Assembly (NCBI GenBank): GCA_964203045.1
Contig: CAXNKU010000002.1
Coordinates: 7,269 to 71,268, forward strand
Reading direction: 5' to 3'
Length of the DNA stretch: 64,000 bases
Source of the DNA: Gaiellales bacterium
GTDB taxonomy: Bacteria > Actinomycetota > Thermoleophilia > Gaiellales > F1-60-MAGs149
The notes under the pieces were generated by a model. That model was not told the DNA's origin and ran no database searches. It was given only the letters and a program-made list of their open reading frames with translations. Each line of letters begins with the position of its first letter. Position 1 is the stretch's first letter. Below are positions 3,322-55,577 of this stretch, one piece after another. Both the position numbers and the translations under genes were made by a program.

Positions 3322-3389
3322 CGGACACCATGGGCCCGGGCCCAAAATGTCCGTGAGGCGACATTCTGGGCCCGGGCCCAGAATGTCGC
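3322..3389. repeat. Two tandem GGGCCCGGGCCC-core palindromes (REP-like); a degenerate half-copy lies at ~3214-3237
   Basis: 3322-3353 CGGACACCATGGGCCC|GGGCCCAAAATGTCCG (imperfect); 3358-3389 GCGACATTCTGGGCCC|GGGCCCAGAATGTCGC (perfect, 32 bp). Confidence 0.9.
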
Positions 3390-3471
3390 GTGCTTGATGG
3401 CTGAACCATTTGATTCAGTCACAACATATGGCTCGAACCATCTGCGTCGAAGATCACGTAGACTGGCGGGT

Positions 3472-6400
3472 ATGCAGGCAGGCGAACACATCGGCGGTCT
3501 CTATGATCGCCAGTTTGAGCACGACGCCTGTGGGCTTGGCACGGTCGTGCAGCTCGACGGCGTCGCATCGCACAGCGTCGTCGAACAGGCGCTCGAAGTA
3601 CTCGAGCGGCTCGATCATCGCGGCGCCACGGGCTCCGATCCGGAAACGGGTGACGGTGCGGGCATCTTGCTCCAAATGCCGCACCGCTTTCTCGCACGCG
3701 TCGCCGCCGAAGACGGCATCGACCTGCCCCCCGCCGGTGACTACGGGATTGGCATGGTCTTCCTCCCCGAAGACCCGGCGCTGCGCCTCCGCTGCGAAGA
3801 GATCGCCGTGCGCATCGTCGCCGAAGAGGGCCACCGCGCAGTGGGTTGGCGCAACGTGCCCGTCGACAACACTGCGATCGGGCCAGTCGCACGCTCGTCT
3901 GCACCCGTCATTCGCCAGCTAATCGTCGAGCGCCGCCACGGCAAGCAAGACGCCTTCGAACGGAAGCTCTACGTGATCCGGCGTCGGATCGAGAAGACCG
4001 TTCAGGCAAGCGTCATACAGAACACCTTTGCGATCGTCAGCCTCTCGACAAAGACGATCGTCTACAAGGGCCTGCTCCGAGCAACACAGGTGACTGCGTA
4101 CTACCCCGACCTTACCGACCGCGACGTCGAATCGGCACTGGCACTCGTCCACTCGCGCTTCTCCACCAACACGATGGGCACGTGGGACCTCGCGCATCCG
4201 TTCCACATGATCGCCCACAACGGCGAGATCAACACCGTCCGCGGCAACAGCAACTGGATGGCAGCACGCGAGCCACAGATGCACAGCAAACTCTTTGGTG
4301 GTGACCTCCAGAAGCTCTACCCCATCACCGAAGAAGGCTGGTCGGACTCGGCCAAGCTCGATGCCGCACTCGAACTACTCGTCCAAGCCGGACGATCGTT
4401 GGAGCACTCGCTCGCCATGCTGATCCCACCCGCCTGGAGCGACACCACGCTCGAGATGGACGATGACATCCGCGCGTTCTACGAGTATCACACGACGCTG
4501 ATGGAACCCTGGGACGGCCCGGCAGCCGTGATTGCGACCGACGGCGACAAGGTCGTCGCGACGCTCGACCGCAACGGACTTCGCCCCGGCCGTTGGCTGC
4601 GCACCAAAGACGGCATCTGCATCCTCGCCTCCGAGATTGGCGTGCTCGACATCCCCCAGTCCGAGATTGTCGAGACCGGCCGCCTCGAGCCAGGTCGGAT
4701 GCTGATGTTCGACACCGCCTCAGGCCGCGTGATCAAAGACCACGAGATCAAGCGCATCCTCTCGCGCCAACGCCCGTATCGCCAATGGCTCGATCAGTAC
4801 AAGTTGCACCTCGACGACCTGCGTCCGCAACAGGGCATCGCAGTTGACGAGGGGGCGCTCCCGACGCTCCAACGCATCTTCGGCTACACCCGCGAAGACC
4901 TCTCGCTGCTGCTGGCACCGATGGCGCTGACGGGCGGTGAGCCGATCGGCTCGATGGGTGACGACACGCCACTGGCTGCCCTCACACATCGCAATCGTCT
5001 GCTGCCGAGCTACTTCAAGCAGCAGTTCGCTCAGGTCACAAACCCGCCGATCGACTCGGAGCGCGAGCGCCTTGTGATGAGCCTACGCGTCGGTGTCGGT
5101 GCAATCGGCAACCTGCTCGACGAGACACCAGAGCACTGCCGTCGTGTCACGACATTGAGCCCGATCCTGACGAACGGCGAGTTGGAGAAGTTACGAGCGC
5201 TGCGCCGCGAAGGCTTCCGGGCCGCCACGATCTCCACGCTCTACCCGCTCGCGGAGGGCGAGGCCGGGCTCGCCCGCGCACTCGACCTGATCTGCCGTGA
5301 GGCCTCGCAACTGGTCTGGGGCGGCACCACAATCGTGATCCTTTCCGACCGCGGTGCCGACACGACGCTCGCACCAATCCCACCGCTGCTCGCGATCGCC
5401 GCCGTCCACTCGCATCTCGTCCGCCAAGGCGCGCGCACGATGTGTGGTCTTGTTGTCGAGTCGGGCGAGCCACGCGAAACGATGCACATGGCGCTGCTGA
5501 TTGGCTATGGCGCGGCGGCCGTCAACCCCTACCTGGCACTCGAGTCACTCCGCGAACTGCACCAGACAGGCGAGCTCGGCGACCTCGATCTCGGCGAGGC
5601 CCGCAAGCGCTACATCCAAGCGCTTGGCAAGGGGCTCCTGAAGATCTGCTCGAAGATGGGCATCTCGACGATCCAGTCGTATCGTGGCGCACAGATCTTC
5701 GAGGCCGTTGGCCTTGGACGCGAGCTGATCGACCGCTACTTCCCCGGCACGATCTCGCGCGTCGGCGGGCTTGAGCTGGGCGACATCGCCGATGAAATTC
5801 GCGAGCGTTACGAACTCGACGTCCAATCCGCACTGCCCGACGACCTCCTCGAAGCCGGCGGCGAGTATCAATTCCGCATCGATGGCGAGCGCCACGCGTG
5901 GCGCCCCGACTCGATCGTCGCGCTGCAGCGCGCCGTCCGCGACGAGTCGTACGAGACCTACCGTGCGTTCGCCGAGCAGATCGACGCCGGCACAGATCGC
6001 GCCATCGCCCTCCGCGATATCTTCGAGATCGTGCCAGCTGGTCCGCCCGTGCCACTCGACGAGGTCGAGCCCTCGAGCGAGATCGTGCGTCGTTTTGCGA
6101 CCGGCGCGATGAGCCTCGGCTCGATCTCGCGCGAGGCACACGAGACGTTGGCAATCGCCATGAACCGCCTCGGCGGCAGGTCCAATACGGGCGAGGGCGG
6201 CGAGGACGCAGTGCGCTCCACCCCCGACGCCAATGGCGATTTGCGGCGCTCGGCAATCAAGCAGGTCGCGTCGGGCCGCTTTGGTGTGACGACGCCGTAC
6301 CTCGTCGATGCCGACCAGGTCCAGATCAAAATGGCCCAAGGCGCAAAGCCCGGCGAGGGTGGACAGTTGCCGGGCCATAAGGTCGATGACTACATCGCAA

Positions 6401-7987
6401 AGGTTCGCCACTCGACGCCCGGCGTGGGCTTGATTAGCCCGCCCCCGCACCACGACATCTACTCGATCGAGGACCTCGCACAGCTGATCCACGACCTCAA
6501 ATGCGTCAATCCACAGGCCGACATCTCGGTCAAGCTGGTCGCCGAGGCTGGTGTCGGCACCGTCGCCGCTGGCGTCGCAAAGGCGAAGGCCGAACACATT
6601 GTCATCTCCGGCCACGACGGCGGCACGGGAGCCTCACCGCTTTCGTCGCTGAAGTACGCAGGCCTGCCGTGGGAGATGGGCCTTGCCGAGGCGCACGAGG
6701 TGCTCGTGATGAACGACCTGCGCGCACAGGTGACGCTGCAGGTCGATGGTGGTCTCCGCACCGGTCGCGACGTGATGGTCGGCGCGCTGCTCGGGGCCGA
6801 AGAATTCGGCTTCTCGACGGCACCGCTAATCGCCGCGGGCTGCATCATGATGCGCGTCTGCCATCTCAACACGTGCCCGGTTGGCATCGCCACGCAGGAC
6901 CCGGTCTTGCGCGAGCGCTTCCGTGGCACTCCCGACGAAATCGTCCGCTACTTCCTGTTCGTCGCCGAGCACCTGCGCGAGCTGATGGCCGAGGTCGGTA
7001 TCCGCACGGTCGACGAGCTGATTGGTCGCCGCGACCTCCTGCGCGAGCGCACCGACCGACCCAGTCTGGCTGGAGAACCTCGATCTCTCGCCGATCCTCG
7101 CGCACCCCCGCCTCCCGGGCGACCCTGCGCCGATTCGCAGCCGTGCACAGGACCACATGCTCGCGAGCAAGATCGACATTGGCGTCATCGCCGAGGCCGA
7201 GCCGGCGCTTGCCAAGGGCAAGCACGTCGTGATCGAACGCGAGGTCCGCAACATCGACCGCACGTTTGGAGCGATGCTGGCCGGTGAGATCGTGCGCCGC
7301 GTTGGTCCGGATGGGCTCCCAGCCGGCACGATCCAGCTGCGCCTGACCGGTCATGGCGGCCAGTCGTTCGGCGCCTTTGCCTTTAACGGCATGGAGATCT
7401 CGCTGACGGGCCCCGTCAACGACTACGTTGGCAAGGGACTCTCGGGCGGAGTAATCGCCGTCCGCGCAGCCGCCGACGCCGGCTACGACGTCGCCACCTC
7501 CTCCTACATCGGCAACGTTGCGCTGTACGGAGCGACCTCTGGTTCGGCGTTCCTGCGGGGTCGTGCCGGCGAACGTTTCTGTGTCCGCAACTCCGGCGCA
7601 ACAGCCGTCGTCGAGGGTGTCGGCGACCACGGGTGTGAGTACATGACAGGTGGCGTGGCCGTGATCCTCGGACCGACGGGCCGCAACTTTGCCGCCGGCA
7701 TGTCGGGTGGCATTGCCTTCGTCCTCGATGACGACGGGCGTCTTAACGAGCGCATCAACCCGGCCAGCGTGTCACTCGACCCGGTCGAGAGCGCCGAGGA
7801 CCGCGAGCTGCTCAAGAGCCTGCTCGAGGAGCACGTTGCCCGCACCGATAGTCCCGTCGCGGCCGCGCTCCTCGCCGACTGGACGAACGCGCTGAAGCGC
7901 TTCATCAAGGTGATGCCAGACGATTACGCGCGCGTGCTCGCCGAGCGCGCCGCGAAGGACATAGAGGCGGCGATCGCTGGTGACTGA
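3472..7987 (+). CDS. gltB: Glutamate synthase large subunit (one +1 frameshift near 7060, probably a sequencing error)
   Basis: [29 protein letters not shown] and CHLNTC motifs; the GXGXG C-terminal domain continues in ORF 7022-7987. Confidence 0.95.
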
Positions 7988-9407
7988 CCCCAAAGGTTTT
8001 CTTACGATTCAACGGCACGTTGCGCCGTATCGCCCCGTCGACGTGCGGCTACAAGACTATGCCGCCGTCGCACCAGAGGCAGACACCGAAATCGTTCGCG
8101 AGCAGGCCCGCCGCTGTATGGATTGCGGCGTCCCCTTCTGCCACACGGGCTGCCCACTCGGCAACCTGATTCCTGAATGGAACGACCTCGTCGAGCGAGA
8201 CCACTTTAAGGACGCGATCGATCGTCTGCACGCGACGAACAACTTCCCCGAATTTACCGGTGCGATCTGCCCCGCCCCCTGCGAGGAGGCGTGTGTCTTG
8301 GCGCTCGAGGAGCAGCCGGTCACGATCAAGCAAGATCGAAATGTCAATCATCGATCGTGCCTTCGCTGAGGGCTGGGTGCTTCCCCAGCGAGCGCCACGC
8401 TCGACGGGCAAAGCGGATCGCCGTCGTTGGTTCGGGACCCGGCTGGCCTCGCCTGCGCTCAGCAGCTCGTCCGCGAAGGTCATAGCGTCACGGTCTTCGA
8501 GCGTGCCGACCAGCTTGGCGGGCTCCTGCGCTACGGCATTCCCGACTTCAAGTTAGAGAAGCAGATGATCGATCGCCGCCTCGCAGCAGCTGGAGGCTGA
8601 AGGGATCGAGTTTGCGACGGGCATCGATGTTGGTGGCGACCTTTCGTATGACGAGCTGCGCGAGGGCGTTGACGCGATCGTGCTCGCGACGGGCGCTCAG
8701 CGCCACCGTGACCTCGTGCTCCCAGGTCGCGAGCTTGCGGGTGTCGAATTCGCGATGCCCTATCTGACACAGCAGAATCGTCGCGTCGCAGGCCTCCCGA
8801 TCGAGGGGCCGGAGATTTCGGCCAAGGGTAAGCGAGTTGCCATCCTTGGCGGCGGCGACACTAGCTCTGACTGCCTCGGCAATGCGTTGCGCGAAGGCGC
8901 GATCGAGGTCCACGAGATCGCCCACGGCCCAACGCCACCAAGCGAGCGCAACCCGCAGAGGACCTGGCCGGAATGGCCCGTCGTGATGCGCACCTACGCG
9001 GCACACCAAGAGGGTGGCGTGCGCGAATGGCAGTTCGTCACCGATCGACTCGAAGGCGAGCAGGGACACGCTAAAACGCCTCGTTGGCCACCGCGTGGAC
9101 TTCCCGGGCTATGCCGAGACAGGCGTCCGCAAAGCCGAACTCGTGCCGGACGGAGACGTCGTGCTCGAGGTCGACCTCGTGCTGCTCGCAATTGGCTTTT
9201 CGGGCACCGAAGAAGACGACGTCTACGCGCAGTCTGGTGCCAGCTGTCGGCGACCGAGGCACCGTCCACGTCGATGCCTCGTTCGAGACCGAGACTCCCG
9301 GTGTCTACGCCTGCGGCGATGCCGTCCGTGGTGCAGATCTCGTCGTGACAGCGATCGCCGACGGCCGCAAGTGTGCCGCCGCGGTGCACGCTGCCGTCAG
9401 CGCCTAG
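7980..9407 (+). CDS. gltD: Glutamate synthase small subunit (six successive +1 frameshifts, probably sequencing errors)
   Basis: [42 protein letters not shown] and [11 protein letters not shown] are spread across successive reading frames. Confidence 0.9.
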
Positions 9408-9517: not shown

Positions 9518-10504
9518 ATGTCCAGCCCCGTAAAAGTCGTCGTCACTGGCGCAGCCGGCCAAATCGGCTATGCCCTCGTCTATCGCATCGCCAGCGGCCA
9601 GCTGCTCGGCCCCGACACGAAGGTCGAGTTGCGTCTGCTCGAGGTTCCTCAGGCCCGCGGTGCGCTTGACGGCGTCGCCATGGAGCTCGACGACTGCGCC
9701 TTCCCGGCCCTCGCCAACGTGGTCTGCACCGACGACCCCAACGTGGCCTTCGACGGTGCCAACATCGGCATGCTCGTCGGTGCCCGCCCCCGCACGAAGG
9801 GCATGGAGCGCGGTGACCTGCTCGAGGCTAACGGCGCGATCTTTACCGTCCAGGGCAAGGCCATCAACGACCACGCTGCGGACGACATCAAGATCCTCGT
9901 GGTGGGCAACCCGGCCAACACGAACGCGTTGATCGCGATGAGCTCGGCGCCTGACGTGCCACGCGATCGCTTTACCGCGATGATGCGCCTCGACCATAAC
10001 CGCGCCAAGACGCAGGTTGCTCAGAAGACCGGCACGACCGTCTCGGACGTCACGCAGATGACCATCTGGGGCAACCACTCGGCCACGCAGTACCCCGACG
10101 TCGTGCACGCCAAGGTTGGCAGCGCAAACGCTTGGGACACGATCAACGACGAGCCATGGGTCGCCGATACGTTCATCCCAACCGTGCAGAAGCGCGGCGC
10201 GGCGATCATCGAGGCGCGCGGCGCCTCGTCGGCCGCCTCGGCTGCCAATGCCGCCATCGACCACATCCATGACTGGGTCCTCGGCACGCCTGAGGGCGAC
10301 TGGGTCTCGATGGGTGTTGCCGTCGACGGCCAGTACGGCATCGAGAAGGGCATCATCTGCGGCATGCCGACCATCTGCAAGAACGGCAAGTGGGAGATCG
10401 TCGAAGGCCTCGAGCTCGACGCCTTCAGCAAGCCGCGCATCGACGCATCGGTCGCCGAGCTCCGCGAGGAGTACGACGCCGTCAAGGAACTCGGTCTGAT
10501 CTAG
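9518..10504 (+). CDS. mdh: Malate dehydrogenase (type 2)
   Basis: [32 protein letters not shown] and WGNHS motifs. Confidence 0.97.
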
Positions 10505-13897: not shown

Positions 13898-14530
13898 ATG
13901 ACGACACCCACGCCCGGACGAAAAGACGCGTACATGCTTCGCGCACGCGCCCGCTATCTGCGTGCTGCCGAAGAGGTCATCGCGACGAGCGGCCCGAACG
14001 CCACGATCGAGCAGTTCGCCCTCCACACCGATGTCGCGGTCGCCACGCTCTACAAGCACTTTGGCTCGAAAGACGGCCTGATCAAGGCTGCCATGTTGGA
14101 TGCACGGCAAAAGTGGGAGGCCTGGCAGTTTGAGGTGCTCAGCCAGCTCACTGATCCGCTCGAGCAACTCGTTCTCGGCCTACGCCTTGCCCACCGGATC
14201 AGTACAACCCACCCGACGCTCGCCATGGTGATTGGCCGCGGACGCGAAGCTGGATACTTCGATCCTAGGGAGTTCGGCGCAACATTCATCGCCAACGCTC
14301 GTGCACTCGCGGCCGCCGGCGTCATCAGTGGCGACCACCTCGAGCTCCGCTGCCAGAGCGTTGTCAGTGCCGTGGCAGCAGAGGGCGCCCGTCAGCTCGT
14401 CGGCGAAGCCACCCCAGTAGAAGGCGACCAAGTCGTCGAGATCGTGTTGCCCCTCCTCGGCATCACACCGGCAAAAGCAAAACTCCTTGCGCACTCTGCG
14501 CTCCCCGAGTTTCCGCCTCCAGCCCGCTAG
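13898..14530 (+). CDS. TetR/AcrR family transcriptional regulator
   Basis: HTH ATIEQFA..DVAVATLYKHFGSKDGL. Confidence 0.92.
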   Translation: MTTPTPGRKDAYMLRARARYLRAAEEVIATSGPNATIEQFALHTDVAVATLYKHFGSKDGLIKAAMLDARQKWEAWQFEVLSQLTDPLEQLVLGLRLAHRISTTHPTLAMVIGRGREAGYFDPREFGATFIANARALAAAGVISGDHLELRCQSVVSAVAAEGARQLVGEATPVEGDQVVEIVLPLLGITPAKAKLLAHSALPEFPPPAR

Positions 14531-14539
14531 GGTTCCGAC

Positions 14540-15313
14540 GTGCGCCTGAACGTTCATCACCTCGGCGATTCGCACGGCGAACCGCTGCTCGCGATCCATG
14601 GTGTCACCAGCCACGGCCTGCGCTATCAGGAGTTCGTCAAGCTGGCTGCTCCTGATCGCCACGTGCTCTCGGTGGATCTGCGCGGCCACGGGCGTTCTGG
14701 TTGGGCGCCACCGTGGGATGTCATCACGCATCTGGACGACCTGCTCGAGACGCTGGACGCGGAGGGCGTTGAAGAGCCGGTCGATGTAATGGGCCACTCA
14801 TTCGGAGGTCTGCTGGCACTGTCGCTCGTGACGCTCGCGCCCGAGCTCGTGCGACGCGCCGTGCTACTCGACCCGGCGATCGCGTTGCCCGCCGACTACT
14901 GCGCTGATCGCGCACGGGACACGATCGCCTTTCAGGGTTGGGAGTCAATCGAGCAGGCTCTTGCCGAACGCGAAGCCAGCGTTGCGCCTCATGGGCGCCA
15001 CTTCGTGCCCGCGGAGATCGCCGAACACGTCGAGCTCTGCGACGACGGACGCTACCGCGCACGCTTCCTACCCGCCGCCGCCGTGACGGCGTGGAGCGAG
15101 ATGGCACACGCAGCACCCATTCCCGAGGAGCCGCGCCCGATCCTGATCCTGCGCGCACTCAACGACAACTACGTCCAAGACGACACGCTGCTGGCACCGC
15201 TTGGCGCCGCGCTTGGCGACAAGCTCGAGGTCGTCGGTCTCGACTCGGCGCACATGATCTACTGGGAGGCGCCCGAGGCCGCCGCCGCAGAGATCAAGCG
15301 TTTCCTCGCCTAG
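14540..15313 (+). CDS. Alpha/beta hydrolase
   Basis: IHG, DLRGHGRS, GHSFGG nucleophile elbow and C-terminal AHM. Confidence 0.9.
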   Translation: MRLNVHHLGDSHGEPLLAIHGVTSHGLRYQEFVKLAAPDRHVLSVDLRGHGRSGWAPPWDVITHLDDLLETLDAEGVEEPVDVMGHSFGGLLALSLVTLAPELVRRAVLLDPAIALPADYCADRARDTIAFQGWESIEQALAEREASVAPHGRHFVPAEIAEHVELCDDGRYRARFLPAAAVTAWSEMAHAAPIPEEPRPILILRALNDNYVQDDTLLAPLGAALGDKLEVVGLDSAHMIYWEAPEAAAAEIKRFLA

Positions 15314-16755
15314 TCCGAGTTGACGCTGGCGCGATCGGCCAGCACTGCGTCAAGCAACCAGGCGGCGAAATCGCCCTCGACGTGGAGTTGCTCGAGATCG
15401 GCCTGCGCCTGTGGACGCTGCAGCCGCAACCAGTCACGGCCGTCGCGGCCCGCGTGGACCAATCCAGATAGATAGAAGCCCTGCGAGCGCAAGGTGTCGA
15501 GAGCCGCTTCGCAATCGCAGGTGAGGTCGAGATCGGCGTAGAGCGTCTCGGCACGTCGCCCGTCGTCCGACCAGAGCATGCGCTCGAGGCGGTGCGGGTC
15601 GGCTCCGCCCGACACGAACAGATTCGCCGACAGGCCTTCTTTGAAGAAGACGATTTCCTCACTCAATTCGAGCGGCACCGCACCCTGCGGTTCAACAACC
15701 TCAAGGCCAGCGTTGTCGGCGATGCGCTGCAGCACGTCTGCGTAAAGCGCGGGCAAGGCGACATGCATTCGAGGTGTTGCCGCCAACGGCAGCACAGAAT
15801 TGAGCAGCGCCCCACGCCCCACGGGCTCCCCACCATCGCTGCCTTGAGCCTGCGCCATCGCGGCAGGCGCAGCACCGATCATCAGTGCAGTCGGCTTGTA
15901 CCCCGACTTGAACTCCGAGCGCTGGCTGTAGATGTGGGCTGTGGTGGCCTGGCCAAACATGGCGGGAATCCCCAGCGCTTTGGCGCGCGCGACCGTGCAC
16001 TCAAACATCTGGTCGAAGAGTCCGAGGCCACGCCACTCGCGAGCGACGACCGCCACGCCAGACTCGGCGGCCTCGCGCGGACCCGAGATCAACAGGGCGT
16101 GATGCCCAATCAGCTCGTCACCCGCATACGCGACGGTGCTCGAGACGTGTCCGTCGTTCATCGCTGCTTCAACCCAAACGGGACGGTAAAAGTCGGCGTG
16201 GACGTAGCCAAGGCCATAGCCGCGGTACATCAATTGCGAGATCGCCTCAGCATCAGCGATTGTCGCATCGCGAATTTCGATGCCTTCTGCAGACTCCGAT
16301 CGCGATGCACGCTCGGCGTCGGCCGCACCATCGATGACAGGGGACAGGACGATCGCGTGCTCAGTTGCAATGTGGAGCGTGAGCCGTTTGCCTTCGTTGG
16401 CGAGGTTGATCAGCCGCACGTTCTCGCCGACGACCTCCGCATCTTCAAGCCCGGCCGGGAGTGGACCGTCTGGACCACCAGCACGCCGAAAGGGCTTGCC
16501 CCAGTCGTGCACGTCGACCACGATCCCGTCGGTGTCGAGCTCGAGACTGATCTCAACGTCGCCACCACTGTCCCCTCCATACGACTGTTCGATACTGAAG
16601 CTGACGAGGCAACGAATCGCACGCTGGAGTCGCTCGACACCTTCGGTGGGGATACCAGCCTCGTGCGCAAAGCTCGTCGCGACGGCTTCGGCAATGATCG
16701 CCGTCGACGGCGAGGCGGGAATGGTGAGCGTCGCACGACCAAGCATGCGCGACAT
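15310..16755 (-). CDS. HATPase_c (RsbW-like) + GNAT acetyltransferase fusion, paralog 1
   Basis: VHDWGKPF G1 box; GNAT motif VVAREWRGLGLF. The true start may be ATG 16746. Confidence 0.75.
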   Translation of the reverse strand: MSRMLGRATLTIPASPSTAIIAEAVATSFAHEAGIPTEGVERLQRAIRCLVSFSIEQSYGGDSGGDVEISLELDTDGIVVDVHDWGKPFRRAGGPDGPLPAGLEDAEVVGENVRLINLANEGKRLTLHIATEHAIVLSPVIDGAADAERASRSESAEGIEIRDATIADAEAISQLMYRGYGLGYVHADFYRPVWVEAAMNDGHVSSTVAYAGDELIGHHALLISGPREAAESGVAVVAREWRGLGLFDQMFECTVARAKALGIPAMFGQATTAHIYSQRSEFKSGYKPTALMIGAAPAAMAQAQGSDGGEPVGRGALLNSVLPLAATPRMHVALPALYADVLQRIADNAGLEVVEPQGAVPLELSEEIVFFKEGLSANLFVSGGADPHRLERMLWSDDGRRAETLYADLDLTCDCEAALDTLRSQGFYLSGLVHAGRDGRDWLRLQRPQAQADLEQLHVEGDFAAWLLDAVLADRASVNSD

Positions 16756-16763
16756 GGTACTGA

Positions 16764-16875
16764 GCAGGCGGACATGTTGGGCCCGGGCCCATCATGTCCG
16801 CCTGCGACCCAGATTGTGAAACCGCCCCTCGCGAGACCTGTGAGTGACTCAGCGTGACGAATACGTATTCGTCAC
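16764..16875. repeat. 112-bp composite element, copy 1 (42-bp GGGCCCGGGCCC palindrome + 22-bp GTGACGAATAC|GTATTCGTCAC palindrome)
   Basis: Aligns without gaps to 18419-18530 with 12 mismatches (hand count). Confidence 0.9.
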
Positions 16876-16928
16876 ATGGGTGTGACGCAATGCAGACGAC
16901 GAATGAAAGACCCCCAGCGTGGAGTGCC

Positions 16929-18380
16929 TCAGGTAACGCTCGCGCGGTCGGCGAGGACCTCATCGAGCAGCCAGCGCGCCTCGGGCAGAAGCCGAATGCC
17001 ATCGATGTCTGCAGCGGCCTGCGGACGCTGCATGCGAAGCCAGTCGCGACCATCGCGACCCGCTGGAATCAGGCCGCTCAGGTAGAAGCCGCGGTCGCGC
17101 AGCATCTCGATCGCATCGGAGCAGTCGAAGGTGAGATCAAGATCAACGTAAAGCGTCTCGGCCCGACGTGCATCCTCAGCCCAAAATTCGCGCTCGACGG
17201 CCCGCAAGTCATGCTGACCGGAGACGTAGACAAACTCGCTGCCCGCTTGTTTCCAGTAGATCGGAGCGTCCTCGACGCCGGCGGGGTCGGCTCCGTCAGG
17301 TGCGACGATCGCATAACCGGCCTCTTCTGCTATCCGCCGCAACACCGCCGCGTACTGCTCGGGCAGTGTTGCCGTGAGCACTGGCGCGGCAGCGAGTGGC
17401 AGCACCGCATAGGCCAAGCCACCACGCGCCGAAGCCTGCGTGCCACGCTTGATCTGACCTTTTGCCATCGTGGGCGGCGCACCTCCGATCATCACCGCCG
17501 TGAACTGGTACCCAGACCCAACTCCCAGTCGCTGGCTCACAACATGCGCCGTTGTCGACTGCCCAAAGACCGCCGACACGCCAAGGCTGCGCGCATTCGC
17601 GACTGCGAAGTCGTGCAGACGGTTGTAGAGCCAGAGCCCGCGCCACTCCTCCGCGATCAAGGCTGCTGCCATCTCGGGAGCCTCACCGGATCCCATCGTG
17701 CTCATTGGACCAGATCCAAACAGCGCGATATGACCGGCTAACTCGTCACCCGCATACGCGACAGTGCTGGCGAGAATACCTCGCTCAATGCCAATCGCGA
17801 TGATCACTGGCCGATAGAACTCGGCGTGCACATAGTCCAGGCCGTAGTTGTCGTACAGGAGTCCGCAGATAGCATCGGCATCCTCCGGTGTGGCGAGTCT
17901 AATCTCGACTTCGTTCTCGCTGTGATGATCGAGTTGCTTCGGCGTACGCGCTGGTTTGGTCGGGGCTGTGGCAAGCCTGGCGTTGGCGTCGTGGGTGCAC
18001 GGAATCTGAAGTGTGAGCAGTTTCCCTTCGTCCGCCAGATTGTCTAAATGCGCATCCGGATCAAGTTCCGCCGCCTCGGCCAGCTCGGATGGCAGGGGAC
18101 CAAACGATCCTCCCCCTCGACGCCATGGTCGTCCCCAATCCTGCACTGCGACCTTGACGCCATTGGGCTCGAGGTCGAGTCTCAACTCGATCTCGCCACC
18201 CGTCACGTCCTTGTACGAATGATGGACAGAGAAGGCCACGAAGATCTGCACGGCACGCTGCACACGCTCGGCATCGTCGATCGCCAAGCCCGCATTCGTA
18301 GCGAACTGGACTGTAGTGACATCTGCCAGCCGCAGAGCGGCGGGCGAGGCCTCGAACGAGAGTCGGATGCTGCCACTCAT
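16929..18380 (-). CDS. HATPase_c (RsbW-like) + GNAT acetyltransferase fusion, paralog 2
   Basis: VQDWGRPW and EEWRGLWL; shares YVHAxFYRP and GRDGRDWLRxQRPQA with paralog 1. Confidence 0.75.
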   Translation of the reverse strand: MSGSIRLSFEASPAALRLADVTTVQFATNAGLAIDDAERVQRAVQIFVAFSVHHSYKDVTGGEIELRLDLEPNGVKVAVQDWGRPWRRGGGSFGPLPSELAEAAELDPDAHLDNLADEGKLLTLQIPCTHDANARLATAPTKPARTPKQLDHHSENEVEIRLATPEDADAICGLLYDNYGLDYVHAEFYRPVIIAIGIERGILASTVAYAGDELAGHIALFGSGPMSTMGSGEAPEMAAALIAEEWRGLWLYNRLHDFAVANARSLGVSAVFGQSTTAHVVSQRLGVGSGYQFTAVMIGGAPPTMAKGQIKRGTQASARGGLAYAVLPLAAAPVLTATLPEQYAAVLRRIAEEAGYAIVAPDGADPAGVEDAPIYWKQAGSEFVYVSGQHDLRAVEREFWAEDARRAETLYVDLDLTFDCSDAIEMLRDRGFYLSGLIPAGRDGRDWLRMQRPQAAADIDGIRLLPEARWLLDEVLADRASVT

Positions 18381-18418
18381 CTGGCAACTCTAGGTGACAG
18401 CCAAACCAGTCGTTGAAT

Positions 18419-18530
18419 GCAGGCGGACATTTTGGGCCCGGGCCCAAAATGTCCGCCTGTGTGCCAGATCATGAAACCACCCCTCGCGGGACCTGTGAGC
18501 GACTCAGCGTGACGAATACGTAATCGTCAC
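18419..18530. repeat. 112-bp composite element, copy 2 (includes a perfect 40-bp palindrome at 18420-18459)
   Basis: CAGGCGGACATTTTGGGCCC|GGGCCCAAAATGTCCGCCTG ... GTGACGAATACGTAATCGTCAC. Confidence 0.9.
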
Positions 18531-19639
18531 GCGCATGTGACGGAAGGCAGACCCAGAGTCCAGGCGAGGCGGGTGGCGGCACGGTCTAGCGCTCGCGGTG
18601 CCGGCCGGCCATCCCAGTTCATCGCGAGGATGCGCAACGCGCCTGCCTTGCGATCGGCTTTGACATCGGCGCGGCCGACGAGGCGCGAGCCGACGAGTAA
18701 GGGCAGCACGTAGTAGCCGTACTGGCGCTTTTGCTTCGGCACGTAGATCTCGAGACGGTGTCGAAAGCCGAACAGGCGCTCCGTCTCGTCACGATCCCAA
18801 ATTAGGTTGTCAAACGGACAGAGCAAGACGGCCGCCGTTGGATCGTGTGGAGGAGTCAGTGCAGCTGGGTCTGCGAGCGCCGCGTGCTCACCTACCTGCA
18901 CGCGGACGAGCGATCCTTCGTCAATGAGTTCGGCCATAGGAGCGGCGAGTGGCTTGGAGCGACCCTGGACGCGGAAGTAGTCGCTCAGTCGCTTCTCCGT
19001 GACAATCCCCCGCGCGGTGACAGCGCGCAGTACCCGCCAACGCAGCGCCGCCGCCTCGTCGACCGGTTCAAGCTGCTGCGCGGTGTAGAGCCGCTCGGGC
19101 AGGTCGTAGACCCGTGCAAAACTCTTGCGCTCGCGCACCGCCAACTGTCCACTCGAGAAGAGCGCCTCGAAGACCTGCTTGGCAGGCGACCACTCCCACC
19201 ACCCCGGTGTGCCCGCGCCGCCAAAATCGCCCGGCGTCAGGGGCCCCTCCGCCTCGATGCGACGCAAGACTGCCTTCGCAATCCTCGGATGCTCTTGAAG
19301 GACCGGCCCCCACCAGCGATGCTGCTGCTCGCTGAGCATGCCGCCTCGAAAGTAGGGCAGGTCGTTCGCGTCGATCAGGCTGGCCTCGTGTGCCCACACT
19401 TCTGCAATGGAGCCACTACGACGCAGACCGTTGAGTGTCGTCGCCGGCACTCGGCCGACGCGTGCCGCGAGCGTTAGGCGATGCGCTCGCGCGACGGTCA
19501 TCACCGAATCGAGTTGGACACAGCCCAGCCGACCGATCGTCGCCAGTACTTCGTCTGCCGTCGCCACCCGATTGCGCGTTGCAAAGCCTTGCCGCGAGAC
19601 GATGATGGTGCAGGCCTCGGCGGGAGAAAGGTGCTCCAC
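18527..19639 (-). CDS. YcaQ/AlkZ-family (HTH_42) DNA glycosylase for interstrand crosslink repair
   Basis: VQLDSV (QxD), WAHEAS, LCPFDNLIWDR and RLEIYVPK..RQYGYY. Confidence 0.88.
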   Translation of the reverse strand: MEHLSPAEACTIIVSRQGFATRNRVATADEVLATIGRLGCVQLDSVMTVARAHRLTLAARVGRVPATTLNGLRRSGSIAEVWAHEASLIDANDLPYFRGGMLSEQQHRWWGPVLQEHPRIAKAVLRRIEAEGPLTPGDFGGAGTPGWWEWSPAKQVFEALFSSGQLAVRERKSFARVYDLPERLYTAQQLEPVDEAAALRWRVLRAVTARGIVTEKRLSDYFRVQGRSKPLAAPMAELIDEGSLVRVQVGEHAALADPAALTPPHDPTAAVLLCPFDNLIWDRDETERLFGFRHRLEIYVPKQKRQYGYYVLPLLVGSRLVGRADVKADRKAGALRILAMNWDGRPAPRALDRAATRLAWTLGLPSVTCA

Positions 19640-19640
19640 G

Positions 19641-21182
19641 CTAGTGGCGGAAGTGGCGGCGGCCGACGTGGAGCATCGCCACACCAGCCGCATCGACGGC
19701 GGCCGTCACCTCGTCGTCGCGCTTTGCGCCACCCGGCTGGATGATCGCGGTGATGCCCGCCTGCAACGCCAGCTCGGCCCCATCGGGGAACGGGAAGAAC
19801 GCATCGGAAGCGAGCACGGCGCCAGCGCGGCGATCCTCTGGCGTCTTCTCCACCGCGATCCGGACCGAATCGACACGGCTCATCTGGCCGGCGCCAATTC
19901 CCAGGGTTGCACCATCGCGTGCGATCACGATCGCGTTCGACGAAACGTGGCGCACGATGCGCCAGGCGAACACGAGGTCCGCCCACTCGCGCGAGTCGGG
20001 CTCAACGCTCGTGACCACGGTCATCGCGGCGCGCGGCTCGTCGGCGCTATCGGGATCCTGCACCAACATGCCGCCGGGCACGGGGCGGTAGTGACGCAGT
20101 GGGCCACGACGCGGCGGCTCGGTGTCTTCCAAGAGGCGCGTGTTCGGGCGAACGGCGAGTGCCTCGAGCGCGCCATCCTCGAAGCTCGGTGCGATGACCA
20201 CCTCGAGGAACTGCTCGGCGAGGCGCGCACCGAGCTCGGCGGTGATCGGACGATTGATAGCGATCACGCCACCAAACGCGCTGACTGGATCGCCGGCCAG
20301 CGCCTTTTCGTAGGCCTCGCCTGCATCGCTACCGAGCGCAACGCCACACGGGTTCTGGTGCTTGATGATCGCGCACGCCGGCTCGTCGAACTCGTTCGCG
20401 ATCGCGTGCGCGGCCGCGAGGTCGGCAAGGTTGTTGTAGGAGAGTCCCTTGCCGCCATGCTGGACGACGCCAGTGAGCAGGTGACGAGAGGCAGTGCGAT
20501 CGACGTAGTACGCGGCCTCTTGGTGCGGATTCTCGCCGTACGGCAATTCGCGTTCGCGCTGCAGGTCGATCACGATCTCATCAGGCAGCGCGACGTTGCC
20601 CATAAACCAGGCAGAGATCGCAGCGTCGTAGCCAGCCGTCATCGTGAAGGCCTCGGCAGCAAGCCGGCGCCGCGTCTCGTCGCTGAGTGCGCCGTCGTGC
20701 TCGCGTAGCTCGGCGATCACTTCTGCATATCGACTCGGTGATGTGACGACCCCGACGGCCTGGTGGTTCTTCGCGGCAGCGCGCACCATTGCTGGCCCAC
20801 CCACGTCGATCTTCTCGATCACCTCGGCATCGGTGATGCCAGGTGTCGCTACGGTCTCGCGGAAGGGGTAGAGGTTGACGACGACGAGACCAATTTCCTT
20901 GATGCCGAACTCCTCGATGCGTGCCAAGTCTTCGGGGACGTCGCGACGGGCGAGGATGCCCCCGTGGATGCCGGGGTGAAGCGTTTTGACTCGCCCACCG
21001 AGCATCTCAGGCGCGCCGGTCACCTCTTCGACTGCAAGCCACGGCACGCCTGCCTCGGCGATGCGCTTACCGGTACCACTCGACGCAACGATCTCGATAC
21101 CGAGCTCGTGCATTGCCAACGCCAGCTCTTCGAGGCCCGTCACATCCGAGACCGAGATCAGGGCGCGGCGAATGCGACTCAT
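19641..21182 (-). CDS. purH: AICAR transformylase / IMP cyclohydrolase
   Basis: RALISVSD, GGRVKTLHP, YGENPHQ, KHQNPCG and ASDAFFPF; ends in RHFRH. Confidence 0.97.
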   Translation of the reverse strand: MSRIRRALISVSDVTGLEELALAMHELGIEIVASSGTGKRIAEAGVPWLAVEEVTGAPEMLGGRVKTLHPGIHGGILARRDVPEDLARIEEFGIKEIGLVVVNLYPFRETVATPGITDAEVIEKIDVGGPAMVRAAAKNHQAVGVVTSPSRYAEVIAELREHDGALSDETRRRLAAEAFTMTAGYDAAISAWFMGNVALPDEIVIDLQRERELPYGENPHQEAAYYVDRTASRHLLTGVVQHGGKGLSYNNLADLAAAHAIANEFDEPACAIIKHQNPCGVALGSDAGEAYEKALAGDPVSAFGGVIAINRPITAELGARLAEQFLEVVIAPSFEDGALEALAVRPNTRLLEDTEPPRRGPLRHYRPVPGGMLVQDPDSADEPRAAMTVVTSVEPDSREWADLVFAWRIVRHVSSNAIVIARDGATLGIGAGQMSRVDSVRIAVEKTPEDRRAGAVLASDAFFPFPDGAELALQAGITAIIQPGGAKRDDEVTAAVDAAGVAMLHVGRRHFRH

Positions 21183-21781
21183 CGTGCCACCGCCTGCGGT
21201 GTGGGAATTTCGTTGCGTGCCAGACGGCGAACGACGTCGGGCAGCAGGCGATGCTCGACTGCTTGGATCCGCTCGTGCAGCGCGGCACCGTCGTCGCCCG
21301 GTCGAATCGGGACGGGCTCCTGTGCAATTGGCGGCCCCGTGTCGAGTCCGGCATCGACGAGATGCACGGTGACCCCCGTCTCGGGCGCACCCGCCGCGAG
21401 GGCCTGCTCCCAGGCCTTCAATCCTGGAAAGGCTGGCAGGAGCGATGGGTGCACATTGATCGTGAGGAAGCGGTCGACGAAGACGGGCGTCAGGATCTCG
21501 AGAAAGCCGGCCAACACCACGAGTTCGACGTCGCGGGCTGCAAGCCAGTCGCCCATCAGTCGGTCGCGCTCTGCCCAATCCTCGCCGCGCACGAAGACCT
21601 CGGTCTCGATCTCGACGTCCTTGGCGCGCGCCAGCGCGATCGCGTCGGCACGATTGGAGGCAACAGCGACAATCCGCGCAGTCTCATCGAGCCCGTCGAG
21701 CAAGGCTGCGAGATTCGAACCACGACCCGAGGCGAGCACCGCGATGCGCAGTGGGTCGTCAACAGAAGCGGCGCGGATCAT
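21179..21781 (-). CDS. purN: Phosphoribosylglycinamide formyltransferase
   Basis: ASGRGSNL, INVHPSLLPAFPG and GVTVHLVDAGLDTGP. Confidence 0.96.
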   Translation of the reverse strand: MIRAASVDDPLRIAVLASGRGSNLAALLDGLDETARIVAVASNRADAIALARAKDVEIETEVFVRGEDWAERDRLMGDWLAARDVELVVLAGFLEILTPVFVDRFLTINVHPSLLPAFPGLKAWEQALAAGAPETGVTVHLVDAGLDTGPPIAQEPVPIRPGDDGAALHERIQAVEHRLLPDVVRRLARNEIPTPQAVAR

Positions 21782-22779: not shown

Positions 22780-22781
22780 GC

Positions 22782-24176: not shown

Positions 24177-24178
24177 GG

Positions 24179-26863: not shown

Positions 26864-26872
26864 TGTTCGGGT

Positions 26873-27808: not shown

Positions 27809-27816
27809 TTCGAGCG

Positions 27817-27915
27817 GGAGGACACCACATCCGCGCGGTTGTCATGTCCTCCTTGAGTTCCGTCGCGCCTCTGATCAAGGGAGGACATGACAACCGCGCG
27901 GATGTGGTGTCCTCC
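27817..27915. repeat. Exactly inverted pair of 36-bp GGAGGACA...TGTCCTCC palindromes (REP doublet/REPIN-like)
   Basis: 27817-27852 GGAGGACACCACATCCGCGCGGTTGTCATGTCCTCC is the exact reverse complement of 27880-27915. It lies between convergent genes. Confidence 0.9.
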
Positions 27916-47625: not shown

Positions 47626-48018
47626 TTAGGCGGGGGCCAGCACGGAAATACCCGACTGCTGACAGGCATCGGCGAGTCGCTGATCGTACGTCACCATCTC
47701 GACAGCCTGTGGAATCGCGAGAGCCGTGGCGAGATGGATCGCATCGAGTGAGCGCAGACTGACCTCGGGCGCGAGCTGGGTCGCAATCGAAATGATGCCG
47801 CGCGAAATATCGATGCGCTCAACAATCGCAAGAAATTCTTTGGCCAGACGCGGTGCGTCGCTTCCGATTCGATGCGCGGCGGTGACTACTTCAATCTCGA
47901 GCAGCGCAGACGACACAATCGGTCGCTCGGATCCTGCCAAGAGGGCGCGAACGCTATCCGACTCTGCTTCAAACGCAAACAGTTTGACGAACGCGGAGGC
48001 ATCGACGTAGTACGTCAT
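47626..48018 (-). CDS. vapC: VapC (PIN) toxin
   Basis: YVDASAFVK and LRSLDAIHLATA, TYD. Confidence 0.92.
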   Translation of the reverse strand: MTYYVDASAFVKLFAFEAESDSVRALLAGSERPIVSSALLEIEVVTAAHRIGSDAPRLAKEFLAIVERIDISRGIISIATQLAPEVSLRSLDAIHLATALAIPQAVEMVTYDQRLADACQQSGISVLAPA

Positions 48019-48326
48019 GCGTCCGACCTGCTCGACTCGTCGAAGTCGCGACGAAGCTCGTCGAGGATTTCCTTGGTCGACGGTGTACCGGGCGCAATCA
48101 TCACTGGTTGAGACTCGAGGATGATCGAAGCGGGCTTCGAAGCGGCGCTCATCAGCCCGCGCTCAATCCAATCCTGTCGCCAGTCTTTGGCTCCCTCGGA
48201 CAACGGTCCGAGCCGCGCGATTGGCTTGCCGCGCTCGGTGACCGTAAACGACTCGCCTTGCTGGACGCGTTCGAGCCAGCGGCTGGCGTGCTGGCGTAAC
48301 TCCCGGACACCGATCGATTCAGTCAT
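48015..48326 (-). CDS. vapB: Phd/YefM-type antitoxin
   Basis: IGVRELRQ..VTERGKPIARL; overlaps the toxin start. Confidence 0.9.
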   Translation of the reverse strand: MTESIGVRELRQHASRWLERVQQGESFTVTERGKPIARLGPLSEGAKDWRQDWIERGLMSAASKPASIILESQPVMIAPGTPSTKEILDELRRDFDESSRSDA

Positions 48327-49178: not shown

Positions 49179-49580
49179 CTAGATACAGACGACGCCAACG
49201 CGCTCGGCGGCCGCACGCAGCTGCTGATCGCACGTTGCGAGCTCGAGGCCCATATCCACGGCGAGCAAGAGGTACGAAGCGTCGTAGGCGGACAGGCCCG
49301 TCCGGTGCGCGACATCGAGGAGCGCCCGCGTTTCCCGATGATCGGGCACGGCAGTGATCGAGCAATCGACAATCGCAGCCAGCATGGCGTGGGCACTCTC
49401 GAGAGAGAGGCGGTCGCGTCGCACCGCCTGCAGCAGTGCGTGAACCAGCTCACTGAACCAGATCGACGGCACATAGGCCGAGTCGCTGGCCAGACGATCG
49501 GCGACGGCACTGCCGACCGCACCCGACTCATCGTCGAAGGCAGCTTCGAGCGCAGCCGAGGCATCGAGCACGAATGGCAC
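49179..49580 (-). CDS. vapC: VapC (PIN) toxin
   Basis: VLDASA, LSAYDASYL and LATCDQQL. Confidence 0.92.
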   Translation of the reverse strand: MPFVLDASAALEAAFDDESGAVGSAVADRLASDSAYVPSIWFSELVHALLQAVRRDRLSLESAHAMLAAIVDCSITAVPDHRETRALLDVAHRTGLSAYDASYLLLAVDMGLELATCDQQLRAAAERVGVVCI

Positions 49581-49822
49581 TAGAGCTTCTTCCCATCGTC
49601 AATCCACGACCGGATCTCCTCTGGCGTCGCCTGGACACCAAGTTCGCGCTTGAGTGCGCGGAGACGGTCCACCGCCGCGGCGCGTGCATCCGTCGTATCC
49701 GTAGCCGGCACGAGCCGAGCGACAGGCTTGCCATGGCGCGTGATCGTCACCTCCACGCCCGCCTCCACATCGGCAATCAGGCGGGACAGATGTGTCTTGG
49801 CTTCGTACACACTGATATCCAT
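49580..49822 (-). CDS. vapB: Phd/YefM-type antitoxin
   Basis: YEAKTHLSRL..ITRHGKPVARL. Confidence 0.92.
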   Translation of the reverse strand: MDISVYEAKTHLSRLIADVEAGVEVTITRHGKPVARLVPATDTTDARAAAVDRLRALKRELGVQATPEEIRSWIDDGKKL

Positions 49823-53822: not shown

Positions 53823-53868
53823 TGCTAGGAGGACATGACAAGTGCGCACTTGTCGTGTCCTCCTAGCA
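53823..53868. repeat. 46-bp palindrome of the GGAGGACA...TGTCCTCC type
   Basis: TGCTAGGAGGACATGACAAGTGC|GCACTTGTCGTGTCCTCCTAGCA, one mismatch, between convergent genes. Confidence 0.88.
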
Positions 53869-55125: not shown

Positions 55126-55420
55126 GGTGTTCGATCAGACGCTCGGCATGATCACCTTGCACCTCGACCGCGCCCTCTCGTAGGGCACCTCCAGCGCCAC
55201 ACAGTTTCTTGAGGTCTTTGAGCCACGTCTTGGTGTCGCCCGGCAAACCGGTGACCAGCGTCACCCAGCCAGCACCACGCCCACCTCGCCGCCGCTCGAC
55301 ACGCACCACACCATCTGCCGGGTGTCCATGAGCCGCCCCAGGGGCAACCGTCGCGCCCTTGCGCTGACGCTTCCCGCTGCGACGCAAATCGCCGTCTTCC
55401 GTCGAATAGACCCGCGTCAT
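55085..55420 (-). CDS. SUI1/YciH family translation initiation factor
   Basis: VYST, GRGAGWVTLV, LKKLCGAGG and VQGDH. Confidence 0.88.
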   Translation of the reverse strand: MTRVYSTEDGDLRRSGKRQRKGATVAPGAAHGHPADGVVRVERRRGGRGAGWVTLVTGLPGDTKTWLKDLKKLCGAGGALREGAVEVQGDHAERLIEHLTAQGLRVRRVGG

Positions 55421-55535
55421 GTCCGAGAGACTGTACGCGCCCACCTCCACCCGCTTCGCACCGTCAACGCACCAATTCGCACATCTTACGCTGCGGATTT
55501 TTTGTTTTCTGGCTTATCTAAGCCAGCCTCTAGTT

Positions 55536-55577
55536 CGAGGCGGACATTTTGGGCCCGGGCCCAAAATGTCCGCCTCG
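55536..55577. repeat. Perfect 42-bp GGGCCCGGGCCC-core palindrome
   Basis: CGAGGCGGACATTTTGGGCCC|GGGCCCAAAATGTCCGCCTCG, 2 nt before the gluQ -10-like box TAGGCT. Confidence 0.92.

Follow-up and report, generated by a model that had tools for sequence, protein, structure and literature searches.

The window analysed here, a 64,000-nt stretch of a freshwater actinobacterial genome (G000) whose repeat families run to about 180 copies, carries short palindromes scattered between its genes, and raises the question of what these are and what spreads them. The original prediction offered two answers: an undescribed REP-like element mobilised in trans, or a structural or binding site.

Palindromes with a fixed 30-bp frame

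A scan of the window recovered all eight proposed GACA-N20-TGTC copies at their positions, each outside called genes (8/8), together with the half-copy claimed near 3214, a right arm that begins at 3219. The features are as follows (listed without strand):

3219..3236: type A, right-arm half copy, with GGGTCC in place of GGGCCC
Frame 3323..3352: type A with unlike arms (left CCAT, right AAAA), 5' of a glutamate synthase gene; opens a tandem pair, 36 bp apart
3358..3389 (frame 3359-3388): type A1, the TTCT/AGAA subfamily
16764..16805 (frame 16770-16799): type A with A3-like arms and one mismatch; starts a composite block of ~135 bp
16854..16875: 22-bp perfect palindrome unrelated to type A, in the same composite block
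18420..18459 (frame 18425-18454): type A2, perfect; starts a second composite block of ~135 bp
18509-18530: the second, 22-bp palindrome of the 18420 block
27817..27915 (frames 27820-27849 and 27883-27912): B1-B1 inverted doublet, REPIN-like, between convergent genes
53823..53868 (frame 53831-53860): type B2 with extended arms, between convergent genes
55536..55577 (frame 55542-55571): type A2, perfect, between divergent genes (SUI1-like and glutamyl-tRNA-synthetase-like)

The half copy at 3219 is the sole clear A half among 10 stray arm-like matches genome-wide. The 22-bp palindrome of the composite blocks occurs three times in the genome, with a type A copy ~80 bp away each time; the genes downstream of the 16764 and 18420 blocks are paralogues (47%), but gene duplication alone was rejected as the source of the blocks because the third one adjoins unrelated genes. 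Rfam gave no match over the window at the gathering score.

In the window, GACA and TGTC are separated by N20 in eight matches, all more than 70% self-complementary, and by each of the other spacings from 10 to 39 in 0-4 matches. Genome-wide, the N20 frame yields 207 matches against a chance level averaging 26 (sd 9) over N21-N44; 180 of them are self-complementary. Self-complementary frames are absent at N18, N21, and N22 and number three at N19, so the palindrome length is fixed across the genome, as had been claimed. Four families, A, B1, B2, and B3, account for 184 of the 207 frames, with about 100 B1 and 18 B3 copies in 1.86 Mb, and A1 (24 copies) the most frequent A subfamily. Their core centres are even (GGGCCC·GGGCCC, AACCGC·GCGGAT, AAGTGC·GCACTT, and AAACCC·CGGTTT, with the axis at the dot). 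Close B1 pairs are inverted in 45/45 instances, and 90 of 100 B1 copies sit in such doublets, at a spacing of 62-118 (median 73). The only true intragenic A/B cluster in the genome overlaps the A enzyme gene at its end; what looked like an A-A insertion in frame at C3 was an artefact of an over-extended gene call.

Symmetry and folding

The copies at 27817 and 27880 are not near-perfect palindromes: the B1 family keeps three mismatches, with complementarity at 5, 9, and 10 bases off the axis in just 4%, 25%, and 18% of 104 copies, and the two window copies pair with each other as a doublet (-54 kcal/mol as DNA). Similarly, the changes taken as compensatory, such as TTCT/AGAA at 3358, are subfamily variants. 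Constancy of length and co-variation of the arms are borne out, but the dominant B1 keeps asymmetric mismatches. The palindromes are loop-less as sequence, although their folded single strands show a 4-nt loop, and the hairpins are highly stable (folding z of -5 to -12). The tip core and the outer GACA box are equally invariant, with 2-3 variable positions between them. In tests uncorrected for number, flank symmetry in type A is 0.62 against 0.35 expected at positions 16-19 and 0.34 against 0.27 at 20-24, with none farther out; at 20-24 it is 0.30 against 0.30 in B1 and 0.49 against 0.36 in B2. The proposed copy-specific flank symmetry is therefore short in reach.

Cognate HUH/Y1 transposases

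In line with the original note, no Y1 transposase is among the 66 window ORFs scanned; however, genes bracketed by copies do lie outside it. An intact HUH/Y1 gene (G000:C2:91292-92050, a 252-aa ORF with NHYH, YVPMNP, and WLWST motifs and a C-terminal HTH) sits 20 kb beyond the window end between two type A copies, and the palindrome upstream of it is identical to the 30-bp frame at 3359-3388. A sister Y1 gene sits between two B1-B1 doublets; it is frameshifted in this assembly, and contigs of four lake runs show small indels there that would leave the frame open. Families E and D, which have the odd-centred GGGGTCAG, sit at two further Y1 genes. Tblastn and translation recovered the A and B genes, a PF01797 search giving just the E-type gene. 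In this assembly (76.7% complete), no cognate gene was found for A2, A3, B2, or B3. DUF559, considered as a partner nuclease, has no match in the genome.

Among five enzymes tested, all match the REP-associated tyrosine transposase model NF047646 at 50-71 bits, below its cut-off of 80, four contain PF01797, and all match HTH_23 weakly (E 3e-4 to 3e-2, below the cut-off). Residues H59, H61, Y118, N122, and P123 are invariant in 21/21 aligned enzymes (length about 229-250 aa), and 20 of these have [NTS]HYH. The AlphaFold model (pLDDT 87.9) ends in three C-terminal helices and retrieves E. coli TnpA-REP (4ER8) as the top Foldseek match (E 1.5e-6; TM 0.69 by target length). By the HuH motif, the tyrosine of Y---NP, and the predicted TnpA-REP fold, these are TnpA-Y1 class 2 (RAYT-like) enzymes.

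Every aligned clade member also keeps the C-terminal helical HTH-like tail, as one might expect if the palindromes, rather than being mobile substrates, were bound as duplex DNA (at paired GACA half-sites 24 bp from each other) or as cruciforms by a protein that organises the chromosome, for which this same HTH would be a candidate. The fixed half-site spacing and the variable positions between invariant boxes fit such a role. We nevertheless regard it as very improbable, given that the tip core is no less invariant than the outer box, the mismatches retained in B1 matter in a hairpin only, the catalytic HuH and Tyr residues are conserved throughout the enzymes, and the B1 copies are laid out as REPINs.

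Enzyme-repeat pairing across the genus

Homologues of these enzymes occur in 17/27 genomes of the genus, and their genes are syntenic throughout, with one A locus, one B locus, and a single copy per type. We first found the flanking repeats by a motif-free palindrome search and then built a motif list from them; partly by construction, it marks 28/28 clade loci, and both flanks in 21/21 of those with at least 250 nt of flank. The list marks 0/124 other Y1 loci. In the arms of 21 distinct flanking palindromes, 86% of positions pair, against 59% in shuffled controls (maximum 66%), with 19 extra pair types (kinship ignored in both counts). In a tree of 82 proteins, the enzymes with A-type, B-type, tetraloop-type, and odd-centred repeats each fall on one side of a branch (SH-aLRT 98-100), the A, B, and tetraloop groups together forming a clade (SH-aLRT 98).

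Each family brackets a tyrosine-transposase gene of its own, in G000 or in close relatives; the transposases of G014 and of a metagenome contig, for instance, lie between A2 copies. Type A repeats (3-44 copies) are present in 8/8 genomes with a GGGCCC-type enzyme. In G013, whose enzyme is flanked by B3, there are 21 B3 and 5 B1 copies, the reverse of the B1 excess in G000, with its B1-flanked enzyme. Counting against the pairing, G015 has B2 upstream of its enzyme, yet 40 B1 and 9 B2 copies; further, 9/25 same-genus genomes, most of them incomplete, hold 2-19 type A copies although searches gave no enzyme to match. Pairs of B2 and B1 ~740 bp apart in G020 and G018, considered as hidden enzyme loci, gave no profile match.

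The claim that the interiors are unrelated and swappable is not supported in that form: types A and B flank sister enzyme clades, and A3 and B arms share GGACATGA. Shared descent thus accounts for the common A/B frame, without convergent selection on length. At the A locus, the enzymes of G000, G013, and G014 are 49-55% identical, against 93-98% for the neighbouring proteins, and the allele of G000, G018, and G020 is inverted, which together point to a replacement of the whole enzyme cassette.

The nearest outside relatives are TIRYT-like enzymes, probably of TnpA-Y1 subclass 2.1 (RAYT Group 1), which carry Y1_Tnp with HTH_23 or Bac_DnaA_C; GGGGWSAS is found in a flank at 69/109 of their loci. 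Searches of plasmids gave no close relative of the enzyme (best matches 25-36% identity), and viral contigs had no match to the type A pattern.

Turnover at orthologous sites

Comparison of filled and empty sites with G020 (~92% identical DNA; about 0.9 of 1.9 Mb covered) indicated fast turnover, with differences at 20/41 A/B sites: 21 agree, 12 have changed, and 8 are empty (one with a weak motif match). For G018, 19 of 25 sites are the same, 3 changed, and 3 empty. Unrelated families substitute for one another within one gap. In the window, the 3323..3352 copy is present in G018 and G017 and missing from G020 and G013; the 16764 site has an additional A1 copy in G018 and a variant copy in G013; the 27817 doublet is retained in G018 and G014, decayed in G013, and absent from G020 and G017; the 53823 site holds B2 plus B3 in G020; and the 55536 copy is found in 4/4 relatives compared. 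B1-B1 doublets and single B2 copies occupy the same sites in different genomes; a simple collapse of the B1 doublet into B2 was rejected since the B2 centre differs at four positions, so that an exchange of interiors is needed.

This turnover bears on whether the palindromes work chiefly in host RNA, as hairpins at 3' ends, terminators in both directions, or barriers to decay, maintained by selection and spread by ordinary recombination, with the transposase link a relic. The B clusters are indeed concentrated between convergent genes (40/67, against 160/995 gaps; p 2e-17), at a median of 33 nt past the stop codon (45/62 within 50 nt), their folds are stable, and decayed A/B copies are scarce (one further fuzzy full-length match genome-wide). 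However, tolerance of 3'-end insertions accounts for the convergent bias equally well, and type A lacks it (4/28). Moreover, the repeat sequence follows the enzyme tree, and the differences at about half of the sites among close relatives, with unrelated families replacing each other in one gap, imply that no particular hairpin is needed there. We accordingly consider a primary host RNA role improbable.

The joints likewise bear on an autonomous insertion sequence, in which the palindromes bracketing the gene would be terminal inverted repeats and the solo copies MITEs with target duplications. CTAG does lie on both sides of 24/175 clusters, against 31/880 control gaps, and three filled/empty or exchanged sites have it at each of their two joints. 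It is, however, the commonest stop-codon context (331/1518) and flanks 16/108 convergent control gaps on both sides, and as a fixed target duplication it was left unproven by the control for stop codons and orientation and by more aligned sites. In 28 aligned site pairs the joints are heterogeneous and the units span ~35-395 bp, with neither constant ends nor a target duplication, and empty-site joints give no single dinucleotide. Considering also that each gene type has one copy, whose locus is constant through the genus, and the plasmid and viral results above, this explanation is largely refuted and hardly credible. Several empty sites have 4-11-bp direct repeats at their joints, as ordinary microhomology deletion would leave, and are therefore not polarised as insertions. 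No excision joint skipping a repeat was seen among the joints listed from contigs of four lake runs over window positions 14000-30000.

Proposed mechanism

Taken with the pairing across the genus, the cognate HUH/Y1 genes bear out a REP-like element mobilised in trans, the mobilisation itself being inferred. We consider it highly probable that these are dispersed non-coding repeats matched to single-copy HUH/Y1-HTH genes, whose products likely cut, copy, and exchange them in trans. By analogy to the biochemistry of the E. coli and Stenotrophomonas TnpA-REP enzymes (PMC8266576), a single-stranded repeat would fold into a hairpin, and the enzyme would nick nearby via its tyrosine and rejoin the strands. 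The nick positions may vary, which would explain the variable unit length and the want of fixed ends and target duplications. The sequences suggest a two-part recognition, of the invariant tip core (positions 1-7 or 1-8) and of the GACA box (11-14), which would lie about one helical turn down the stem after the 2-3 variable bases; such recognition would account for the fixed 30-bp length. Behind stop codons, the B doublets probably have the secondary effect of forming hairpins in the 3' ends of transcripts.

A more specific version, which we put forward as tentative and doubtful, is that HTH-tailed Group 1/subclass 2.1 enzymes run REPIN populations without GTAG by a two-point ruler, the HUH core reading the hairpin tip and the HTH the GACA box one turn down. 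Perfect subtypes would then be substrates on both strands, interiors might trade places through strand transfer between the 11-bp arms that they have in common (B1-B1 versus single B2), and enzyme cassettes could be swapped and inverted at a fixed locus via their own flanking palindromes. If this were true, a single genus would offer more than 10 enzyme/repeat variants for reading the recognition code.

Relationship to known systems

The palindromes are a variant of known REP/TIR-type repeats and no new class of element; contrary to the prediction of an undescribed kind, TIR repeats with TIRYT enzymes have been described (Di Nocera et al., 2013; PMC3733652). TIRYT/TIRtron is the closest system and, placed by the published descriptions, probably corresponds to TnpA-Y1 subclass 2.1 (Quentin et al., 2018; PMC6006769), the second-largest Y1 HUH protein group in that account, and to RAYT Group 1 (Bertels et al., 2017; PMC5581495). 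Shared are a protein of about 235 aa whose Y1 HUH core has NH[YF]H-like and Y---NP motifs and is followed by a C-terminal HTH (the TIRYT/subclass 2.1 descriptions give NH[YF]H or NHVH, a length near 238 aa, and the HTH, all found here), a gene bracketed by inverted repeats without GTAG (at the 21 loci with enough flank), and repeats that are dispersed, often dimeric, sometimes self-complementary, and present as several enzyme/repeat pairs per genome. The differences lie in the even-centred core, the odd-centred GGGGTC-W-GACCCC being found in sister families of the same genome, and in the copy number, about 100 of one family in a small genome. By comparison, Di Nocera et al. call TIR families moderately abundant, flanking 16-mers of Group 1 average 12 (Bertels et al.), and the available text of Quentin et al. 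reports no REP-like sequences at subclass 2.1 and, for its sample of high-G+C actinobacteria, IS200-type genes only.

With the REP/REPIN/BIME repeats of Groups 2 and 3 in E. coli, Pseudomonas, and Stenotrophomonas (PMC8266576; bioRxiv 10.1101/2021.07.10.451892) the palindromes share a short, extragenic, high-copy form (184 copies) in inverted doublets of ~100 bp, mosaics of subtypes, a 3'-end bias, and a single-copy, non-jumping enzyme at a conserved locus, with the conserved stem mismatches of B1 recalling E. coli REPs. In contrast to canonical REPs, the GTAG/GTGG tetranucleotide at the 5' stem foot is missing (GTAG precedes 14/304 arms scored, with a loose AG or GG preference only), A2 and B2 are perfect palindromes, so that both strands give the same hairpin, and the enzyme differs from E. 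coli RayT in its HTH tail, 18% structural identity, and long branch. In canonical REP systems the single-stranded repeat is cleaved strand-specifically at CT. According to the bioRxiv study, no RAYT groups other than 2 and 3 are associated with REPINs. The REP/RAYT 'orthoswitch' (Nunvar et al., 2013; PMC3686654) likewise involves syntenic enzyme genes with differing repeat classes, the old ones remaining after the switch, but the divergence of enzymes relative to neighbours and the inverted allele set the present A locus apart. IS200/IS605 TnpA (IS608, ISDra2) has the same fold (Foldseek E 1.7e-4 to 7.6e-4) and a hairpin-bordered gene; the enzymes here differ in having Y---NP in place of Y---Q, a longer protein with HTH, a single copy at a fixed locus, and no tnpB seen at their loci, and the variable unit lengths and joints depart from MITEs and classical IS.

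New features are the lack of a GTAG tag, an even-centred core, a Group-1-like enzyme whose repeats reach the copy number of REPINs, and the swapping of enzymes at one locus. The literature searches gave no account of these sequences, nor of repeats of this kind in Thermoleophilia, a similar TIR being possible in Figure 9, S4, and S5 of PMC3733652; a term search did not find GGGCCCGGGCCC in two supplements of PMC6006769. The REP biochemistry consulted concerns GTAG-guided Group 2 and 3 enzymes only (PMC8266576). In the present genus, enzymes of the subclass 2.1 type are matched one-to-one to repeats that are abundant in a compact actinobacterial genome. They form a ready-made set of small enzymes with known candidate substrates for studying cut-site choice without GTAG and the role of the HTH tail. 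Published TIRs mostly, not all, carry GGGGWSAS (PMC3733652), whose exact form lies within 25 bp of 14/184 A/B copies; both the outer box GG[ACG]GGACA[CT] and the GGGTCC·GGACCC variant (locus L018) resemble it.

Palindromes of a common plan form genome-wide families

The palindromes are real and are explained in kind by known systems. The eight copies and one half copy of the original prediction are present as described in the window, G000:C2:7269-71268, whose genes are of the bacterial housekeeping kind (purine synthesis, dnaB, rplI, and rpsF), and a scan of the whole assembly (G000; 1.86 Mb, 64% G+C, completeness 76.7%) bore out the proposed fixed length: the GACA-N20-TGTC frame occurs 207 times, 180 of these self-complementary, versus about 26 at other spacings. 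By core, the genome-wide families comprise 45 (A), 106 (B1), 15 (B2), and 18 (B3) copies; further odd-centred families with a GGGGTC-W-GACCC-type core comprise 41 (C), 26 (D), and 76 (E). These last 143 copies have odd-centred GGGGTCAG cores, and these families come with their own Y1-HTH genes; three short patterns for them, searched in the window, gave zero matches.

In all four A/B families, the 7–8 axis-adjacent positions and the GACA box (positions 11–14) are nearly invariant, the latter as a consequence of how copies were selected, with variable bases in-between (positions 8–10 in A, 9–10 in B). The C, D, and E families are built along similar lines, with a core followed by variable bases and then an outer box. 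The constant repeat length is best interpreted as a set distance between tip core and GACA box that A and B both owe to their common ancestor; one might hypothesize that the HTH reads this box. Family A divides into subfamilies A1 (n=24), A2 (n=9), and A3 (n=8); across the family the arms co-vary at positions 8–11 (0.81 versus 0.66 shuffled), with hybrids of unlike arms also occurring. B1 retains three stem mismatches and forms inverted doublets (45/45 close pairs inverted; 90/100 copies paired; median spacing 73 bp). By our own gene calls, B clusters are enriched at convergent gene ends (40/67 versus 160/995) and A clusters are without such bias (4/28); a secondary RNA role for the B doublets is plausible.

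The spacer of the E doublets is itself palindromic. Separately, a few copies sit inside perfect or near-perfect palindromes with arms of 44–50 bp that extend into the copy-specific flank, the outcome expected of fold-back or template-switch synthesis:

G000:C6 ~83745-83835, copy embedded in a long palindrome
G000:C2 ~110330-110430, copy embedded in a long palindrome
G000:C6 ~10345-10430, copy embedded in a long palindrome

Y1 transposases accompany the repeats

The original prediction envisaged a REP-like element mobilized in trans, and a search for an HUH/RAYT gene flanked by copies recovered an intact one outside the window, together with further Y1 genes:

C2, between the type A pair at 91123 and 92008, ~20 kb beyond the window end: intact A-type HUH/Y1 gene
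C13, between two B1 doublets: frameshifted B-type sister gene
C1:38656-39507 and C7:31200-31900, plus genome-wide copies: C/D/E families with Y1-HTH genes

A third Y1 gene is bracketed by E doublets, and a broken fourth is followed by a D repeat. The A-enzyme locus was found in sequencing runs from lake and freshwater metagenomes, and contigs from four runs suggest that the frame of the B-type gene is open in lake populations. In profile searches, the proteins match NF047646 with scores below its cut-off and HTH_23 weakly; their predicted structure is a TnpA-REP fold with a three-helix tail. By analogy to TnpA-REP (PMC8266576), the palindrome would fold to a hairpin on single-stranded DNA, which the enzyme likely binds, nicking nearby and rejoining.

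Enzyme homologs are found in 17/27 genomes of the genus, with flanking palindromes at nearly all loci examined. In a tree built without frameshifted, partial, and near-duplicate rows, repeat type tracks the protein: one branch has GGGCCC, GGGTCC, GGATCC, and GGACCC cores, a second the B cores, and a third a GNAA-loop hairpin, with the odd-centred types forming a separate clade. The A pattern occurs in 16/24 other genomes of the genus versus 0/16 from other families of the order, and the B pattern in 16/26 genomes. Related enzymes are present in 116/401 genomes of the class, scoring at most 160 bits versus 263–333 for this clade; GGGGWSAS, a motif of most published TIRs, is in a flank at 69/109 of the outside enzyme loci, and even-centred motifs are at 0/124 other Y1 loci. 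In a 50%-cluster library, nine clusters score 177–328 bits, followed by the bulk of 17,007 matches. The clade is thus small, lineage-restricted, and placed among TIRYT-like enzymes.

Locus history and turnover

The enzyme genes lie at the same loci throughout the genus and therefore behave as if domesticated. This genome and two relatives (G018, G020) share an A-locus allele that is inverted and 49–53% identical to the other alleles, although the neighboring proteins in G013 and G014 are 93–98% identical. This pattern suggests cassette replacement and matches the REP/RAYT orthoswitch described in PMC3686654. At the B locus of three relatives (G022, G008, and G009; L027, L028, and L039), sister enzymes are flanked by a four-base-loop GNAA hairpin with a bulge; hence, a switch between looped and even-centred repeats has taken place at a single locus. 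Where G018 and G015 have their C-type enzyme locus, this genome has only ~190 bp (C6:85609-85802).

Comparison of filled and empty sites, as the prediction called for, showed that the repeats turn over fast: 20/41 A/B sites differ in G020 and 6/25 in G018. The counterpart of three B1 doublets is a single B2 copy; at C5:106420 only the interior differs, with the outer arms retained; and the same gaps are occupied by unrelated families in relatives (C with B2, E with B2, and E with A). Since gained or lost units span ~35–395 bp and their joints are heterogeneous, several with short direct repeats, the units have no constant ends, and most of the changes could be either gains or losses. CTAG on both sides was considered as a fixed target duplication and set aside, being inseparable from stop-codon usage. 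Subtype abundance matches the enzyme that the genome carries in the case of G000, G013, and G005; G015 is an exception.

Relationship to known systems

The system works like REPIN-RAYT, but the arms of the A/B palindromes lack the GTAG foot, so they are not canonical REPs. It shares protein and layout features with TIRYT (subclass 2.1), a placement by features rather than against labelled reference proteins, although GGGGWSAS is mostly missing. According to PMC3733652, that motif is not required of TIRs, and self-complementary, dimeric TIR families are known from Stenotrophomonas. In the literature searched, Figure 9 of PMC3733652 aside, no paper on these sequences was found. What is new are the even-centred cores, a copy number on the REPIN scale in this group of enzymes, an actinobacterial host, and a genus-wide enzyme-repeat series.

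Other features of the window

A ~135-bp block combining a type A copy, a spacer, and an unrelated 22-bp palindrome occurs in three ~80% identical copies. Two readings fit this block: a composite repeat, or a repeat to which a regulatory site has become fused. Two of the copies precede paralogous ~480-aa genes (47% identical, with an N-terminal RsbW-like HATPase domain), whose remaining ~390 residues matched nothing in Pfam or NCBIfam at the applied thresholds; the third sits between unrelated genes.

16764-16897, 18420-18552, and G000:C10 ~62465-62610: composite blocks
15310-16755 and 16929-18380, - strand: tandem paralogs with anti-sigma-like HATPase_c_2 domain
35258-37885, - strand: dnaB with intein carrying a LAGLIDADG domain
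47626-48326 and 49179-49822, - strand: PIN/Phd toxin-antitoxin pair and a second, similarly arranged pair ~1 kb off (the latter from gene calls only)
2613-3185, - strand: IrrE/ImmA-like metallopeptidase gene, divergent from glutamate synthase

The glutamate synthase region (7287-9400) seems to be split among frames, with the large-subunit ORF stopping at 7287 and a different one of the several frames encoding the GXGXG domain. The half copy and two type A copies occupy the gap between the metallopeptidase and glutamate synthase genes.
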